In this document: in pieces, positions 3,878-55,300 of the stretch
Numbering within the stretch: position 1 is the first letter of the stretch
How the letters are laid out: every line of letters begins with the position of its first letter
Notes under the pieces: model-generated
Told to the model about the DNA's origin: nothing
Database searches by the model: none
Seen by the model: the letters and a program-made list of their open reading frames with translations, nothing else
Translations under genes and position numbers: made by a program
Source of the DNA: a virus
Taxonomy: Duplodnaviria; Caudoviricetes
Strand: one strand, 5' to 3'
DNA: 55,300 nucleotides
Virus record (IMG/VR): IMGVR_UViG_3300014501_000022
Span: 1 to 55,300 of that record

Positions 3878-4963
3878 ATGGCATTACTTAATGTTCAAGT
3901 CTTAACGCTAGCGACAGCTACGCAACCCGTCCAAGAAACATTTACGATGGGTGCTGTCGCACCCTTCACGTTCACAACCTCATCGCTACCCGTTGTTATC
4001 CCTGGAGTACTTACTACGCAAACAGGGACAGTAGCTGTTGTTAACGGCTCTGCAGTGGTAATAGGTACGGGGACAACCTTCTCTGCACTAACGATAGGCA
4101 GTCAAGTTCAATTCCCTAGCCAGCCAGGCGGAGTATATCATATACAGTCAATAGCGAGCGACACCTCTTTAACGCTAACGACATCCTATACAGGTACAGC
4201 GAACCCCTCAACACAGTTGTTGTTACAGTACGTCTACGTCTCTACTGCTCCTGTAGGCTTCCAGTATACCGCTAACTTCGCAACGGGACTTCTCACCTTC
4301 CCTGCTACATCCGCTAACATAACCTTTGTAGTCGCCTACAACGCGACGTTCTACACTCCTACGGTAGGAGCGGCGAGCGCCCTCATAGAGATGTGGGGCG
4401 GCGGAGGACAAGGTGGATATGCTCTAGGCGGTCTCCCTATCACCTATTCAGTAGGTTCAGGAGGAGGTTCAGGCGGCTACGCTAGCTACTTCTTACCTTC
4501 TCTAGCGGGTCCGTATCAGATAGGTATAGGAACTGGTGGAGGCACCGCTGTACTTGGTTCTTCTCTCAACGGCGGCAACACCTTCTTTAACACCGGCTCT
4601 CTAATTATAACGGCGTATGGCGGTCTACAGGGTAACACAATACAAGTAGGCGCATCAGTCCCTCAGATAACCTTAGGGGGCCTCGGCGGAGTAATTTCAA
4701 CGAACGGTATATACAACGGCGCAGGCAACGCGGGAGAAGAAGGACTGATCCTATCTGGATCCTTTATAAAGGGAGGAGCTGGTGGCGCGACCGCTTTAGG
4801 TGGCGCAGGTGCCTCTCTAGGGATAACTGGAACAGGGAATGGCAATAACGCCATAGCTAATACTGGATCAGGCGGCGGCGGTGGCATCAACACAAATATT
4901 ACAAGTCTTGCATTAGGTGGGTTAGGCTCAGCTGGTGTGATGATCGTTTCAGAGTATCAGTAA
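3878..4963 (+). CDS. glycine-rich tail/virion fibre-like protein
   Basis: [19 protein letters not shown] segment; Gly-rich domain [11 protein letters not shown]...GSGGGSGGY...[13 protein letters not shown]. Confidence 0.7.
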
Positions 4964-50575: not shown

Positions 50576-50617
50576 AAAATAGCCGCTACCGTTAGCTTCA
50601 ACGGTAGCGGCTATTTT
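50576..50617. terminator. bidirectional intrinsic terminator
   Basis: AAAATAGCCGCTACCGTT-AGCTTC-AACGGTAGCGGCTATTTT between convergent gene blocks. Confidence 0.9.
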
Positions 50618-50846
50618 AGTCTATAGCGACCCATGCCCCAGACGCTCGACTATCCGTGTAGATTTCTCTCGCTTCAGGATATAGCCACCCATTGTTTGCT
50701 TGCCATCCCATTATCCTGACACTGAAGAATCTTTCCGCGATTTGAAATGTCTTATAGATTTTCTGTTCATCTGGGTACAGAGATACCCACCCCTGAAGAG
50801 AATCTTGTTGGTTAATACTAGTCCAATTAATTTCCTGCATATACAC
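50616..50846 (-). CDS. hypothetical protein
   Basis: 76 aa, GAGG RBS, upstream GTGTAATAT box. Confidence 0.55.
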   Translation of the reverse strand: MYMQEINWTSINQQDSLQGWVSLYPDEQKIYKTFQIAERFFSVRIMGWQANNGWLYPEAREIYTDSRASGAWVAID

Positions 50847-50887
50847 CTCTCTTACGACGTTAAGAGATATTACACTACCGCTAACGA

Positions 50888-51256
50888 TTAATGACCGTGG
50901 ACGTAGTATCTTCCTTTACCTTCAAGGTAGTCGGGATTGCAGTCTCGACAACGCTCGTCCTTTAATATATTGGCGAGTGCCTTGAATCTCTTATGTTCCT
51001 TTTGGTTAAGGACAATTTCGAGAGTATGAGTATGATTCCAGTATGCTTCCCAGAAGAGTTTAGTAGCTCTCCAGAGTCGCCAGTGCCACGGGATGTTCAT
51101 GAATGTGTTATCATGCATCTCCAAGATGGCCATGCGCTCATCCATCATGGTAACCATTAATCCATGATCCTGCGTTCCGCAGTCACAAGAGAACCAATCA
51201 TCCTCTTCCTTAAAGGGAAGGGGCTTCTCTTTGGGTACATCCGGTACTATAGCCAT
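50888..51256 (-). CDS. hypothetical protein
   Basis: CDCG..DH motif; TAATG coupled. Confidence 0.65.
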   Translation of the reverse strand: MAIVPDVPKEKPLPFKEEDDWFSCDCGTQDHGLMVTMMDERMAILEMHDNTFMNIPWHWRLWRATKLFWEAYWNHTHTLEIVLNQKEHKRFKALANILKDERCRDCNPDYLEGKGRYYVHGH

Positions 51257-51597
51257 TACTCATCATCCTCTACTTGCATAGCGCTAACGATTGGAGGAAC
51301 ACTCCCACCCGCTAATACGGATATTCCGGTAGGTTCTTCCTCTACTTTCTCCCAGTACTCAAGCTTCTCATCCCAAACGTAGTTCTTAGATAGCTGTACC
51401 TCAACGACGGCACCCTGATCATAGAACTTCGTAATAGGAACGGGCTTAAGTAATCGCTTCGCGTCTGCTGGTCCCTTTGCGTCGTTCTCGAAGAACGAAG
51501 CTAGGATACGGATAGTCTCTTTGTCGGCGTCAGCAAGAAAGTCCGCAACCTTCTTTAAGCGACCTCTCGCCCGGACGACATCTCCTTTTGTAAGCAA
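51256..51597 (-). CDS. hypothetical protein
   Basis: AGGAG RBS, TTG start. Confidence 0.6.
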   Translation of the reverse strand: MLTKGDVVRARGRLKKVADFLADADKETIRILASFFENDAKGPADAKRLLKPVPITKFYDQGAVVEVQLSKNYVWDEKLEYWEKVEEEPTGISVLAGGSVPPIVSAMQVEDDE

Positions 51598-51608
51598 TCG
51601 ATTCTCTC

Positions 51609-52223
51609 CTAGGGATCTAACTCAGACTCCCAATACTTACTATCGATCAAGCGCTGCCAGCTTACGGGGATTGGTGCATGACCCGTAACGAGAGTACCGG
51701 CACCCTTCCATTCTGGCCGTTGAGGCTTAACACGTAACGTCATGCCAGCCTCTTCAGGCGTCTTGTCATCCTTCTTGGTGTTGCAAGGAATACAAGATAA
51801 TACAATGTTTGTCCAATTAGATACACCACCCCGAGACTTAGGAATTACGTGATCAAGATTCCATTCGTCTGGCTTAGTAAGCTTAGAGGGCTTAGAAAAC
51901 TTCTTGCCACAGTAAGCGCACTGGTAGTTGTAATGCTCTAGGATATTTCGACGAGAGAATTTAACCTCTTGTCTAGGTAGACGATCATACCGGGTTAACT
52001 GAATAACTTCCGGGATCGCAATTCGGAGGGAAGACGTATGGACGAAACCTCTCCCACTCTTCTCCATCATGGCAGACAACTCACACCAATCATTGAAGTC
52101 GTAGGTAACAAGGTTCTCGTCAACTGCTCTTGCGTGACCTGTGTATAGGAGAGTTAATGCCTTCTGCCAATCGGATATGTGGATTGCGTAGAAGTTTCGG
52201 TTTAAGACTAGCGTGTCAGCCAT
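51609..52223 (-). CDS. HNH endonuclease (McrA/COG1403-like)
   Basis: LVLN, FSRRNI, CAYCG, LDHVIPKSRGG...NIVLSCIPCNTKK. Confidence 0.9.
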   Translation of the reverse strand: MADTLVLNRNFYAIHISDWQKALTLLYTGHARAVDENLVTYDFNDWCELSAMMEKSGRGFVHTSSLRIAIPEVIQLTRYDRLPRQEVKFSRRNILEHYNYQCAYCGKKFSKPSKLTKPDEWNLDHVIPKSRGGVSNWTNIVLSCIPCNTKKDDKTPEEAGMTLRVKPQRPEWKGAGTLVTGHAPIPVSWQRLIDSKYWESELDP

Positions 52224-52304
52224 ATCGTATCTCTCCTAGTATTTAAGTTCTATAAGTTACTTCGCCTGTACATTGTCATTTCATTTATCCTTTTCACGAC
52301 AAAT

Positions 52305-52378
52305 TGGAGCTACCACTCGGTATCGATCCGAGGTCGATCCCTTACCAAGGGATTACTCTGCCTTTGAGCTATGGTAGC
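52305..52378 (-). tRNA. tRNA-Thr(GGT)
   Basis: Acceptor GCTACCA/TGGTAGC, anticodon loop TTGGTAA, T loop ATCGATA, CCA. Confidence 0.85.
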
Positions 52379-52384
52379 AAAAAT

Positions 52385-52459
52385 TGGAGCTGCCATGGAG
52401 AGATGCACTCCACTCTGAGACTTACGAAGTCCCTGCATCGCTAACTATGCTTTGGCAGC
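52385..52459 (-). tRNA. tRNA-Thr(CGT)
   Basis: GCTGCCA/TGGCAGC, loop TTCGTAA, atypical T loop TGCATCT, CCA. Confidence 0.8.
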
Positions 52460-52461
52460 AT

Positions 52462-52535
52462 TGGTATCACCGGGTGGTATCGATCCACCGTCTAAGCCTT
52501 ATGAGAGCCCCATTCTACCTTTGAACTACGGTGAC
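52462..52535 (-). tRNA. tRNA-CAT (elongator Met or Ile2)
   Basis: GTCACCG/CGGTGAT, loop CTCATAA, CCA. Confidence 0.8.
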
Positions 52536-52542
52536 TACAAAT

Positions 52543-52618
52543 TGGTAGCGGGAGCTGGAATTGAACCAGCCTGGAAGAGCTTATGAGACTCCTGAGTTCA
52601 CCAGAACTCTACCCCGCA
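52543..52618 (-). tRNA. tRNA-CAT, initiator (fMet)-like
   Basis: TGCGGGG/TCCCGCT with 1:72 mismatch, loop CTCATAA, TTCAATT, CCA. Confidence 0.8.
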
Positions 52619-52622
52619 AATT

Positions 52623-52698
52623 TGGTACCCTAGGAAGGGGTTGCACCTTCACTGAACAGGTTTTGAAGCTGTTGCCTCTGCTATTGGGCTACTAGGGC
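52623..52698 (-). tRNA. tRNA-Leu(CAA), short variable loop
   Basis: GCCCTAG/CTAGGGT, loop TTCAAAA, T loop TGCAACC, CCA. Confidence 0.8.
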
Positions 52699-52837
52699 GA
52701 CTGTCTAAATACACACTTAGGCGCTTCGCGAAACATTCAACACAGTTATCTGTACTCAGGTTAAAGGTCTCAGCTAGGTCGTATAAGAGAGAACCCATCG
52801 TCATTGGATTCACTATACAACAAAGTGCCTTTGTCAT
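52649..52837 (-). CDS. small Cys-containing hypothetical protein (3' end overlaps tRNA-Leu)
   Basis: ATGA coupling with upstream ORF; overlap with tRNA lowers confidence. Confidence 0.4.
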   Translation of the reverse strand: MTKALCCIVNPMTMGSLLYDLAETFNLSTDNCVECFAKRLSVYLDSRPSSPIAEATASKPVQ

Positions 52838-53031
52838 TTCTTCTTTATGTGTCTTGGGTTATCTTTCTTACCGCAAGGATACCCGCACTTCTTACAATGG
52901 CGACTCGATACAGCAAAGGCACCGATCATGGAGTCATCGATAAAGTCCCAGTCGAGAGTTTCCATTACCTTCTTTGGAACCTTCTTATACTTCCCTCGTA
53001 CGCCTTTACTGAAGTCGTACTCTTTCTTCAT
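52834..53031 (-). CDS. BrnA-like antitoxin N-terminal motif protein
   Basis: MKKEYDFSKGVRGKY resembles N-termini of BrnA/CopG-type antitoxins; C-terminal CKKC. Confidence 0.6.
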   Translation of the reverse strand: MKKEYDFSKGVRGKYKKVPKKVMETLDWDFIDDSMIGAFAVSSRHCKKCGYPCGKKDNPRHIKKK

Positions 53032-53032
53032 A

Positions 53033-53108
53033 TGGTGCCTATGGTAGGATTTGAACCTACACTGGACGGCTTCTTAGACCGCTTCCTCTGCCGTTGGGAT
53101 ACATAGGC
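53033..53108 (-). tRNA. tRNA-Leu(AAG), short variable loop
   Basis: GCCTATG/CATAGGC, stem GCGGT/GCCGT, loop CTAAGAA, TTCAAAT, CCA. Confidence 0.85.
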
Positions 53109-53114
53109 TTAAAT

Positions 53115-53188
53115 TGGTGCTCTAGGAAGGAATCGAACCTTCACGGTCACAATGTCAATGTGATGCCCTACCACTAGGCGACTGGAGC
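53115..53188 (-). tRNA. tRNA-Val(GAC)
   Basis: GCTCCAG/CTAGAGC, loop TTGACAT, TTCGATT, CCA. Confidence 0.85.
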
Positions 53189-53379
53189 TAATATATCTCT
53201 TGTTTCGGACCACATCGCGTAAGAAGAAAGCCCATGATCTTTCGATCACTTCTCAAACAATAGTCGTCCCAATCGTCTTGGAACTTCCACTTCTTGGTAC
53301 ATCTATCACAATAGGTCCAATCATCTTTCTTCTTCCAATCGTGATAAAGAATCTTACACAAGTCCTTCTCAAACTTCAT
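53188..53379 (-). CDS. small DUF1660-like Cys/His protein
   Basis: LCKILYHDW...CDRC. Confidence 0.6.
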   Translation of the reverse strand: MKFEKDLCKILYHDWKKKDDWTYCDRCTKKWKFQDDWDDYCLRSDRKIMGFLLTRCGPKQEIY

Positions 53380-53380
53380 A

Positions 53381-53455
53381 TGGTGCCCTTAGCAGGAGTC
53401 GAACCCGCATCTCAGAGGTAGAAGCTCCGCGCTCTGGCCATTGAGCTATAAGGGC
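53381..53455 (-). tRNA. tRNA-Arg(TCT)
   Basis: GCCCTTA/TAAGGGC, loop CTTCTAC, TTCGACT, CCA. Confidence 0.9.
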
Positions 53456-53460
53456 TAAAT

Positions 53461-53535
53461 TGGAGCCGCCACCCGGACTCGCGCCGGACTATCACGCTTA
53501 CAAGGCGTGCGCATCGCTACCTATGCTTTGGCGGC
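53461..53535 (-). tRNA. tRNA-Thr(TGT)
   Basis: GCCGCCA/TGGCGGC, loop CTTGTAA, atypical T loop CGCGAGT, CCA. Confidence 0.82.
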
Positions 53536-53540
53536 ATATA

Positions 53541-53613
53541 TGCCTTCGGTCGGAATTGAACCGACATGGACGGGAGTTTAGAGTTCCCCGCTTTGCCATT
53601 AAGCTACGAAGGC
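53541..53613 (-). tRNA. amber suppressor tRNA (anticodon CTA), no encoded CCA
   Basis: GCCTTCG/CGAAGGC, D arm GCTT-AATGGCA-AAGC, GGGAA-CTCTAAA-CTCCC, GTCGG-TTCAATT-CCGAC. Confidence 0.82.
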
Positions 53614-53619
53614 TAATTG

Positions 53620-54168
53620 TTACTTTCTTAAGGCACTAAAAATTCTCTTGGCTATCGTCCAAGGGCTGTATTGCCATTCACCATTGATCATACCTTCAAC
53701 CATTCCTGGCAAAGCTTCAGTACATAGACGACAGTGTTCGTACGACAGTCCGTGCATTCCACACTGAGCTATCGGTCCCATGTTGACTTTCCAACCGTCT
53801 GAGGCGCCGGGCCTTACTGCGGAGTAACTGTAACCTCTTGTTGAGGGACACTTCGCGTACTCAGTGAAATGTCTTTCTGGACTACAAATTGTTTTCTCGA
53901 ATACCTCATACACCCAAGGATCGCCGCTTGCATTCTTCTGCCATGATCTCTTTAGATCGTAGCCGCACCAGCAATGCGTATGTATCCCGTATATGTTGTA
54001 TAGTCTCTTTACTTCTTGTCGCTCGCGACCGTGCTTCTGACATCCTATCAAACGTGGTCCGCCCGACGCCGTATATCCTCCGTCGTTCAACGTACAAAGA
54101 ATATGTTTCCTTGCAGCGATACACGGAAGGCTAATTAGTTCTTCCTACGACTCTTCTTTCTATAACAT
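53620..54168 (-). CDS. Cys/His-rich hypothetical protein; likely N-terminus contains two in-frame TAG codons
   Basis: Track ORF 53620-54090 extends in frame to TAG 54147-54145, TAG 54162-54160 and an ATG at 54168 with GGAG RBS; true start unresolved. Confidence 0.55.
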
Positions 54169-54342
54169 TTTATCTCCATTACCGTAAGTTGGCTTCTTCG
54201 GGTCTATTGCCCAGTGGTGCCCTTTGCTTTCAGTATAAGGACATTCACGCGGCTGTGCCCTTGCAGGCCAGCACTTGTAACAACACTTCGTCTTACAAAG
54301 CTTACACCAGCAATATTCGTTGATAACGCAACAAATGTTCAT
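54160..54342 (-). CDS. small Cys-rich protein (TAG stop, in frame with downstream ORF)
   Basis: CC...CWCKLC...CCYKC; ATG 5 nt after TATAAT. Confidence 0.6.
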   Translation of the reverse strand: MNICCVINEYCWCKLCKTKCCYKCWPARAQPRECPYTESKGHHWAIDPKKPTYGNGDKML

Positions 54343-54361
54343 TACTGATTATACACTAAAT

Positions 54362-54437
54362 TGGTAGCCTAGGAGAGGGTTGCACTCTCACTGTACGGGT
54401 TTTAAAGCCGCTGCCTCTGCTATTGGGCTACTAGGCC
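54362..54437 (-). tRNA. tRNA-Leu(TAA), short variable loop
   Basis: GGCCTAG/CTAGGCT, loop TTTAAAA, T loop TGCAACC, CCA; paralogue of Leu(CAA). Confidence 0.8.
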
Positions 54438-54595
54438 GTCAAATCGATTGGTCGCTCTATGCAGTATGAAGAACCTGTGTAAGCGTTCTGTTCAATCCAG
54501 TCCTTATCTGCTTTGTAACAATCGACACAGTACTCATACTTCATACCATCAACTGTCACAAATACTACCGGATGAACCTGACAACAGAGTCTCAT
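54431..54595 (-). CDS. small Cys-containing protein (54 aa, not in ORF track)
   Basis: MRLCCQVH...YCVDC...; TAG stop overlaps the tRNA-Leu 5' end. Confidence 0.5.
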   Translation of the reverse strand: MRLCCQVHPVVFVTVDGMKYEYCVDCYKADKDWIEQNAYTGSSYCIERPIDLTA

Positions 54596-54597
54596 AT

Positions 54598-54672
54598 TGG
54601 AGCACCAGGGGAGAATCGAACTCCCTCATGAAAGTTTTGCAGACTCTCAGCTTCCCACTTGCCTACTGGTGC
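54598..54672 (-). tRNA. tRNA-Cys(GCA)
   Basis: GCACCAG/CTGGTGC, loop CTGCAAA, U73, CCA. Confidence 0.88.
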
Positions 54673-54673
54673 A

Positions 54674-54868
54674 TTATTGGCTTGGCAAGTCAGGGTAACA
54701 AGCTATACAATACTTCTTTACGTCGGTACAATAGTTCGTATAAGCTCCGACATGCAGCGTTGTGTCGTCGCAACCCGGATAAGTACACTGGTGGTAATAT
54801 CCTAATAAACCTCTATACGCATTACCCCACTTGTGTCCATTTACGAGGCACGGTAAAGATCTATTCAT
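54674..54868 (-). CDS. small DUF1660-like Cys/His protein
   Basis: SLPCLVNGHKW...CTYPGC...CIAC. Confidence 0.55.
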   Translation of the reverse strand: MNRSLPCLVNGHKWGNAYRGLLGYYHQCTYPGCDDTTLHVGAYTNYCTDVKKYCIACYPDLPSQ

Positions 54869-55031
54869 ATGTTAGGATTGTCGTACCATAATCGACACCC
54901 GACAACGTCTGGAATGCTCCGCACTTACGACGACAGTTTCTATACTTCGTAGGGAACCCTTTCTTTACTTTCGAAAGGATAAACTCACCCCAATCATGCC
55001 CTAATATCTTACACAGGTTCTTTAGAAACAT
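54861..55031 (-). CDS. small DUF1660-like Cys/His protein (56 aa, not in ORF track)
   Basis: MFLKNLCKILGHDW...CRRKC. Confidence 0.6.
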   Translation of the reverse strand: MFLKNLCKILGHDWGEFILSKVKKGFPTKYRNCRRKCGAFQTLSGVDYGTTILTYE

Positions 55032-55035
55032 AAAC

Positions 55036-55109
55036 TGGCGGGGGCTCTAGGAATCGAACCCAGGTTAACGGTTTTGGAGACCGCAATTCTGCCACTGAAC
55101 TAAACCCCC
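55036..55109 (-). tRNA. tRNA-Trp(CCA)
   Basis: GGGGGTT/AGCCCCC, loop CTCCAAA, G73, CCA. Confidence 0.9.
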
Positions 55110-55116
55110 ATAAATC

Positions 55117-55204
55117 TGGCGGAAGCTACAGGATTCGAACCTGTGGAGCTGTTACACCCTTCGGTTTTCAAGACCGACGCCTTAAACCACTCGGCCAAAC
55201 TTCC
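55117..55204 (-). tRNA. tRNA-Ser(TGA)
   Basis: GGAAGTT/AGCTTCC, loop CTTGAAA, long variable arm, G73, CCA. Confidence 0.92.
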
Positions 55205-55300
55205 AAATCAATTGTAGTAGTGCTGACCTTGTTTTTAACCCCACATCCGCGTGCTGGTCCCATTTTAGCTAGCCTTATTGGGACTTCTCGAGTTACGAAG

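Follow-up and report, generated by a model that had tools for sequence, protein, structure and literature searches.

A small phage gene with early in-frame TAG codons is conserved together with an adjacent amber suppressor tRNA

In the viral record IMGVR_UViG_3300014501_000022 of IMG/VR (55,300 bp, an estimated 26% of a genome; the entire record was analysed and is called the window here), a small Cys/His-rich gene with two in-frame TAG codons close to its start is followed directly by a transfer RNA (tRNA) with the anticodon CUA. Gene and tRNA recur side by side in two further lineages, with a TAG shortly before the same conserved motif. Judging from these sequences, we consider it likely that the co-inherited gene and decoder form a cassette for gene-specific amber gating, in which the protein would most likely be made only when its own UAG-reading tRNA works. 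This reading builds on the anatomy of the locus, which three lineages conserve, on signs that the tRNA is under selection and on the lack of recoding elsewhere. A first-pass annotation of this DNA had already paired the suppressor with a gene needing read-through, in what it called a local cassette; homologues of the protein and the recurrence in two further lineages support the pairing, and "local" is the right word, as a complete relative has no TAG recoding elsewhere.

Results

The gene is followed by a tRNA with the anticodon CUA

Read from its ATG, the gene begins GGAG-ATAAA-ATG TTA TAG AAA GAA GAG TCG TAG GAA GAA CTA ATT AGC CTT CCG TGT, and its frame is open from 54342 to 53623 but for the two TAGs (240 residues counted from 54342; Table 1). 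The 5' end of the tRNA lies 6 nt past the TAA stop of the gene. The first-pass annotation had given the coordinates of the locus, this gap, the GGAG-ATG-TAG-TAG frame and the lengths of 182 and 240 residues correctly.

Table 1. Features of the locus, in window coordinates.
Feature	Position	Strand	Details and basis
Amber suppressor tRNA	53541..53613	-	ARAGORN (cta), Rfam, fold, homologous CUA tRNAs in two other lineages
Putative amber-gated gene	53620..54168	-	182 codons, ATG 54168 to TAA 53622-53620; translation and homologues
Predicted ribosome-binding site and start	54166..54177	-	GGAG 54177-54174, 5-nt spacer, ATG 54168-54166
First in-frame TAG	54160..54162	-	Codon 3 from ATG 54168; also the stop of the upstream 60-residue ORF
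Second in-frame TAG	54145..54147	-	Codon 8, five codons ahead of the conserved SLPC
Upstream 60-residue Cys-rich ORF (MNICCVIN...)	54160..54342	-	Same frame as the gene; ends at the first TAG

The tRNA call itself holds up well. ARAGORN reports the anticodon cta, the Rfam model RF00005 gives 57.1 bits (gathering score 29), and the predicted cloverleaf of -27.7 kcal/mol has a z of -3.86, equalled by one of 200 shuffles. The usual tRNA hallmarks are present (U8, A14, G18G19, U33, a UUCRA-type T-loop and the cloverleaf), the anticodon sits in the 7-nt loop CUCUAAA, and there is one A-C mismatch at the foot of the anticodon stem. At the 3' end the discriminator A is followed by TAT, with no encoded CCA, whereas the other 13 tRNAs of the window encode it. 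The earlier count of 14 tRNAs, with the suppressor alone lacking CCA, is borne out: 13 are found by ARAGORN and one more, Thr(UGU), by Rfam with lax filters.

Conserved residues place the start ahead of TTG 54090

The gene is single copy, and its product belongs to a family of proteins of about 120-230 residues that matches no family in Pfam or PHROG. Under translation table 11 the open reading frame (ORF) begins at TTG 54090, and four close homologues are 61-67% identical to this 156-residue version. When 1.84 billion representatives were searched with a profile, nine proteins reached E <= 0.001, of which eight belong to the family and one is a weak match to a repeat protein. Sixteen Cys/His/Gly columns are invariant across 12 homologues, and the product is probably zinc-binding. 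ESM Atlas held no usable match for the protein, and Foldseek of an AlphaFold model found no PDB entry at E <= 0.001, the model being poor (mean pLDDT 57).

The conserved part of the protein extends beyond the TTG. Residues H14, L16, C17 and T18 (K-H-I-L-C-T), upstream of TTG 54090, are conserved in the homologue alignments, C17 being nearly invariant in the 12-sequence alignment; SLPC or SLVC is present still further upstream in four homologues; and the L at -2, SLPC and K-H-I-x-C are common to the homologues. Judged from these alignments, the table-11 ORF is a truncated form of the gene, and translation must start upstream of 54130, because conserved residues precede TTG 54090. The earlier proposal that the extension with SLPC is coding is thus confirmed, and its counter-case, in which homologues would start downstream at TTG 54090, fails. 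No canonical start codon (ATG, GTG or TTG) lies between the second TAG and 54130. A GGAG, GAGG or AGGA core like that before ATG 54168 stands ahead of 15 of 45 genes of at least 100 residues, versus 176 of 1589 ATGs overall (11%).

The cassette recurs in two further lineages

A pattern search of IMG/VR with the 12-sequence alignment returned one locus, L004, which sits in G001, a complete 210,348-bp genome with terminal repeats. The DNA polymerases of G001 and the window phage are 87% identical and the family genes only about 45%. The two tRNA arrays are syntenic, with Ser(tga), Trp, GHxW-motif ORFs, Cys, Leu(taa), CC-motif ORFs, the family gene, Thr(tgt), Arg(tct) and Val(gac). When a neighbouring GHxW ORF was used as bait, only the G001 relative was found. 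Searches of IMG/VR for close relatives with the gene, the family alignment and an 828-residue neighbour gave no further DNA copies, the family alignment found nothing among JGI metagenome contigs, and the gene had no match in GenBank phages (DNA and tblastn) or prokaryote genomes.

The head of the gene in L004 reads GAGG, 9 nt, then ATG TCG TAG AAC AAT TTA ATT TCG TTG CCA TGT (M S stop N N L I S L P C), and its TCG TAG aligns with the second TAG of the window. The suppressor of L004 (4469-4540; 41.9 bits in Rfam, loop CUCUAAA) overlaps the last 15 nt of the gene (4469-4483). The L004 sequence, including ATG TCG TAG, recurs on a further metagenome contig, L019. The third lineage comes from a 2,608-bp contig, L020, which encodes a protein of the lineage of homologue P0009, 41% identical to the L004 gene product. 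It begins TA TAG AAC TTA ACG TCA CTT CCG TGT (stop N L T S L P C), with the TAG four codons before SLPC, and its tRNA(cta), called by ARAGORN at 419-489, overlaps the gene stop by 10 nt (419-428). Among the window, L004/L019 and L020, the protein identity of the gene is only 41-46%. The C-terminal tails of homologues P0006, P0008, P0009 and P0010 resemble a translated tRNA 5' strand. With the overlap in L004 and L020, 5' processing of the tRNA would strip the mRNA of its stop codon.

The first canonical starts after the TAG lie in non-homologous places and each would cut off conserved residues: a TTG in CTLN in the window, a TTG inside SLPC in L004 and a GTG in HVPC in L020. Behind the TAG and ahead of SLPC, the three lineages share no near-cognate start: where the window and L004 have ATT, L020 has ACG. 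A Shine-Dalgarno (SD) sequence with ATG precedes the TAG in every head that is visible (one in the window, two in the relative). The second head in G001 belongs to another small gene, ORF-B, which reads GGAGAGATAAA-ATG TCA TAG and continues at once with E-L-C-C-L-V-N; the CC-ORF paralogues open with this invariant motif, which the first canonical start of ORF-B would cut. A scan of both tRNA arrays for ORFs with an ATG and an early stop gave these three convincing heads only.

The homologues in the protein databases also bear on the residue at the TAG. In the column of the second TAG, P0006 and P0003 have Q. P0006 is the L004 protein but for this Q, and was evidently called by some pipeline with TAG read as Q; the Q of P0003 may also stand for a TAG. 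The first-pass annotation had proposed looking for the residue that homologues align with the TAG; Q does align, and that of P0006 is a TAG in the DNA of L004.

The three suppressors share all seven bases of the loop CUCUAAA while their mutual identity is only about 68-70%. In an alignment by cloverleaf segments, pairing is kept in 58 of 63 stem cells, and double-sided changes occur in 12 of 21 pairs. Because the loop is kept and the stems carry compensatory changes, this sequence comparison indicates that the CUA tRNA is real and is selected as a CUA tRNA.

Similarity to other tRNAs gives a less uniform picture. By pairwise comparison, each suppressor has a different closest non-suppressor tRNA: two of them come nearest to short-armed Leu-anticodon tRNAs (aag; taa) of the phage itself and the third to Ile(gat), and the discriminators are A, U and A. 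ARAGORN labels the tRNA as tRNA-Pyl by default, which we reject: the suppressor has a 5-bp anticodon stem, a 7-nt D-loop and a 4-6-nt variable region, where a tRNA-Pyl body has a 6-bp anticodon stem, a 3-nt variable loop and a very short D-loop, and neither the window nor the complete relative has a match to PylS. We also rejected a Gln-type suppressor as judged by the tRNA body, since the three Gln tRNAs of G001 are not near (45 of 67 positions at best, about 4 kb off), although charging with Gln is still compatible with such a body.

The window suppressor has only 23-33-nt blastn matches in GenBank phages, among them the 5' part of a Cellulophaga phage tRNA-Lys. The exact 17-nt pattern of its anticodon arm gave two chance matches, neither a tRNA, and the sole match of a degenerate pattern made from the three suppressors was the 210-kb relative. 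In Acinetobacter phage Maestro (MT949699.1), positions 1501-1533 match the 3' half of the window suppressor over 33 nt at 85%, between annotated coding sequences and about 330 nt downstream of that phage's own tRNA(cta); the context ends ...CCACCA, like a tRNA 3' end, and has no ARAGORN call.

The rest of the window and the complete relative keep the standard code

Of 64 plus-strand ORFs in the window, 57 end in TAA, 4 in TAG and 3 in TGA. The four that end in TAG include polA and an SbcD-like gene, and reading through would add merely 3-16 codons, which agrees with the earlier view that the window is otherwise not recoded. The complete relative allowed a wider look. Its 314 coding-strand ORFs end in TAA (200), TAG (57) and TGA (57), and the in-frame stop upstream of a gene is TAG for 78 of 313 genes, versus TGA for 80. 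Sites with at least 60 open codons on both sides number 31 for TAG, 33 for TGA and 56 for TAA. When the TAG junctions on the coding strand were read with X, none of seven was spanned by a PHROG family; five had PHROG matches, each one-sided or of two different families. A crude comparison of stop-free lengths under alternative codes did not discriminate.

No release-factor gene and no GlnRS/GluRS-type gene was found in the window or in G001; a scan for TAG-split genes, release factors and synthetases had been proposed in the first-pass annotation. We therefore reject a code-15 (TAG-recoded) phage, for which many TAG-interrupted genes, as a rule those for structure or lysis, would be expected; these occur neither in the window nor in the complete relative.

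Stop usage differs around the tRNA array. Five of 12 minus-strand ORFs in or beside it (50600-55300) end in TAG, versus 4 of 64 on the plus strand (1-50700; Fisher p 0.004), the 12 having been picked by eye, to the exclusion of ORFs that overlie tRNAs or are nested within another frame. One of the array ORFs ends TAG TAG and overlaps tRNA-Leu(taa) at 54431-54437. An HNH endonuclease gene at the edge of the array (51609-52223, minus strand; Pfam HNH, 1.7e-12) also ends in TAG. In G001, positions 159751-160458 (L025) encode a QueC-like 7-cyano-7-deazaguanine synthase (PHROG 1550, 1.4e-73), directly behind a primase zinc-finger ORF with a TAG stop.

The doubled TAG and the upstream ORF

The 60-residue ORF ahead of the gene has no homologue in the protein database. 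Its paralogues in the window and L004 have the common start M-x-L/I-C-C-x-V/I-N, and in L004/G001 the upstream small ORFs end in TAA, unlike that of the window. By these comparisons it is a separate gene and not a conserved fusion partner. The first-pass annotation had also proposed a 240-residue fusion made by read-through, an arrangement for which Q-beta A1, a C-terminal programmed read-through extension, is the type case. Among 77 candidate proteins of 132-422 residues there were four matches, none covering the N-terminal part; homologues thus lend the fusion no support, and it would at most be a by-product.

The doubling of the TAG can be traced in the head itself. A 20-nt stretch, GAGATAAAATGTTATAGAAA, matches the head of ORF-B in G001 at 18 of 20 positions, which 0 of 500 shuffles reached, and the next part matches the family gene's own head with a score that 1 of 500 shuffles reached. 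ORF-B is absent from the window. On this sequence evidence, the two TAGs of the window are two one-TAG heads joined by an in-frame loss (or separated by a gain in the relative), leaving one ATG. Since the heads are joined in frame, the 60-residue ORF lies in the frame of the gene and ends at its first TAG.

Surroundings of the locus and samples

On its plus strand the window carries replication genes (RNR, DNA polymerase I (polA), primase and SbcD-like), and on its minus strand the tRNA array, which takes up the window beyond about 52.3 kb and is interspersed with small Cys-rich ORFs. These small ORFs (window 52649-55031, minus strand; L004 2880-3990) fall into two motif groups that are kept in both phages, one starting M-x-L/I-C-C-x-V-N and the other with L-C-x-I/V-x-G-H-x-W. 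The latter includes MFLKNLCKILGHDWG, which is the same in the window phage and G001 across 15 residues.

Several tRNAs of the array are unusual. The tRNA-Thr(UGU) at 53464-53535 (minus strand) has an odd T-loop, GCGAGUC, and scores 41.0 bits in Rfam with lax filters; ARAGORN and Rfam with default filters miss it. In L020 the suppressor is followed directly by a Thr(tgt)-like sequence that is odd in a similar way, and G001 has a canonical Thr(tgt) at that place. The three tRNAs with the Leu anticodons caa, aag and taa (52623-52698, 53033-53108 and 54362-54437, minus strand) are each only 76 nt long, with short variable regions unlike the long arm of bacterial tRNA-Leu, and Leu(aag) has A in the wobble position. 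In G001 both short-armed and long-armed Leu tRNAs are present.

A separate Logan assembly, of a run that is possibly the source sample, holds a 4094-nt contig identical across 53300-54676. The two TAGs are therefore not likely to be an assembler artefact, a concern raised in the first-pass annotation, although the sample may be the same and the contig is thus not independent. Relatives at 92-94% identity across 54071-54505 occur in runs X2 and X3, peat or permafrost by their run labels. For these, 40 of 117 differences are listed, none of them from 54100-54198, and the comparison bears on the flanking frames and not on the two TAGs. Counted by hand among the listed differences, third codon positions account for 8 of the 10 that lie in the gene and for 7 of the 10 within the 60-residue ORF. 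The RNA-library contigs of run X16 cover neither gene nor suppressor, and a scan of the locus for promoters and terminators gave chance-level results.

Discussion

From the arrangement of the locus we infer initiation at ATG 54168, read-through, charging of the tRNA and a regulatory purpose. Ribosomes would initiate at the SD-ATG and reach a UAG at codon 3 and another at codon 8. Without the suppressor a dipeptide would be released and nothing further made, and a stop as early as codon 3 would be a cheap failure. The phage tRNA(CUA), once transcribed and processed, would receive its CCA from a host enzyme and be charged by a host synthetase; it would then compete with host RF1, giving the 182-residue protein, and the output of the gene would track the efficiency of the suppressor. 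The inserted residue should hardly matter, because the TAGs lie in a non-conserved N-terminal tail. More speculatively, where the tRNA overlaps the end of the gene, excision of the tRNA would destroy the stop codon of the mRNA; if so, each transcript would give either a decoder or a translatable message, which could serve as a timer or set a ratio. A role of the protein in acting on the tRNA or on termination is a further such idea.

Several points weigh against gating. Cassette DNA comes from three lineages only. Two serial TAGs would reduce the yield to about the square of the suppression efficiency. The L004 tRNA is weaker than that of the window, with three mismatched stem pairs and U in place of A as discriminator, and is missed by ARAGORN. 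The L020 contig begins two bases before the TAG, leaving its start codon outside. The Q of P0003 could be a true CAG. P0010 and P0012 start with an ordinary M before SLPC or SLVC, with no Q or visible stop, so gating is not universal in the family. Finally, the ATT at 54135 in the window stands at a good distance behind AGGAAG and could initiate.

This last point leads to a different account, in which the gene starts after the TAGs at ATT 54135, the TAGs are the stop of the 60-residue ORF and a back-up stop, and the suppressor has some other use. The AGGAAG lies 5-7 nt ahead of the ATT, L004 has the same codon, and tandem stops would be sensible for a phage carrying a suppressor. We nevertheless think this account unlikely. 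The ATT start, which the first-pass annotation had named as a weak point of its own reading, is not conserved: no SD stands ahead of the ATT of L004, and the codon in L020 is ACG. The L at -2 is conserved despite lying upstream of the ATT, and the TAG keeps its position in spite of the low protein identity. All three heads have SD and ATG, and the TAG of L004 ends no upstream ORF, since ORF-B there stops with TAA one base ahead of the ATG. The frame behind the TAG is always that of a conserved protein, which speaks against reading the SD-ATG-NNN-TAG units as two-codon minigenes that act by drop-off or by termination and reinitiation, without read-through by the tRNA. Three units of SD, ATG, one codon and TAG do exist, and minigenes of the shape SD-ATG-NNN-stop are known from phage lambda bar, yet there is no canonical or conserved near-cognate restart codon downstream, and the stop is always TAG, the codon read by the adjacent tRNA. 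We give the minigene account very little credence.

Hardly any more weight can be put on TAG recoding (code 15) of late genes, which would place further cases in the 74% of the genome outside the window; we judge it quite improbable. The window does hold only about 26% of the genome, P0006 was evidently called with TAG=Q, and the stops are dominated by TAA (57/64), as in relatives of recoded phages according to available passages of Borges et al. (10.1101/2021.08.26.457843). The complete relative, however, has no excess of TAG-split frames or of TAG upstream of genes, a protein family spans none of its seven junctions, and no release-factor gene was found. An incipient code reassignment, which the first-pass annotation had offered as a further option, finds no support in the analysis, though it might apply as an evolutionary reading. 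That the gene is simply decaying by nonsense mutations beside a coincidental tRNA also seems to us very improbable: small ORFs of the array do evolve fast and the gene has no recognised family, but the listed differences fall mostly on third codon positions in both the gene and the 60-residue ORF, the 16 Cys/His/Gly columns are invariant across the homologues, and the same TAG is found in three lineages.

Phage-encoded suppressors have been described mainly from the side of recoding: in the passages available to us, Borges et al. (10.1101/2021.08.26.457843) report Sup-CTA tRNAs in TAG-recoded phages (crAss-like, Lak and others) and propose that TAA-rich standard-code phages which gain a suppressor are precursors of recoding, and a 2026 survey of jumbo phages (PMC13037316), as far as its accessible text goes, screened for suppressors in recoded genomes. 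The window phage and its relative share with code-15 phages a phage-encoded tRNA(CUA), a host presumably of standard code and a strong preference for TAA. They differ in that the in-frame TAG occurs in only one gene of the window and two of G001, in each case among codons 3-8 from the start and with the tRNA directly downstream; that no structural or lysis genes are recoded and no RF2 gene is present; that the tRNA is not Gln-like by similarity; and that the habitat is peat or permafrost, by run labels, and not the gut. TAG-recoded phages with suppressor tRNAs are reportedly also treated by Yutin et al.

The closest parallel is Acinetobacter phage Maestro (GenBank MT949699.1), which has a tRNA(cta) and, about 400 nt downstream, AGGTAGG-ATG AAA CAT TAG in frame with an annotated 80-residue coding sequence. 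Like the cassette described here, it combines SD and ATG, a TAG in the first few codons, a coding sequence straight after it and a nearby tRNA(cta) in a phage of otherwise standard code. Its putatively gated protein is unrelated, its lineage and habitat are different, and in our phages the 3' end of the gene abuts or overlaps the tRNA, with the TAG doubled in the window. The suppressors supE, supP and supF of E. coli and the psu tRNAs of T4 have an ordinary elongator body with the anticodon CUA and compete with RF1. Unlike these mutants that rescue a mutation, the tRNA of the cassette is natural and conserved and is paired with a natural target gene. As judged from titles, abstract openings and some passages, supplements aside, we found no description of a single-gene suppressor cassette in the literature.

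For annotation, the cassette is a reminder that table-11 gene callers truncate such genes and that some decoders escape the standard programs for finding tRNAs. For experiment, it offers a clonable system of about 0.7 kb for natural gene-specific amber gating. Among phages of standard code that carry suppressors, G001 points to the genes that would need the tRNA, one or two tiny ones placed right before it. More tentatively, suppressors in standard-code jumbo phages might be neither remnants nor forerunners of genome recoding but dedicated switches, each a mobile module of gene and decoder in which a tiny zinc-type protein could be made only by way of a tRNA on the same transcript. The pairing of gene and tRNA outlasts strong divergence of both partners, and such a cassette may be a first step towards recoding.

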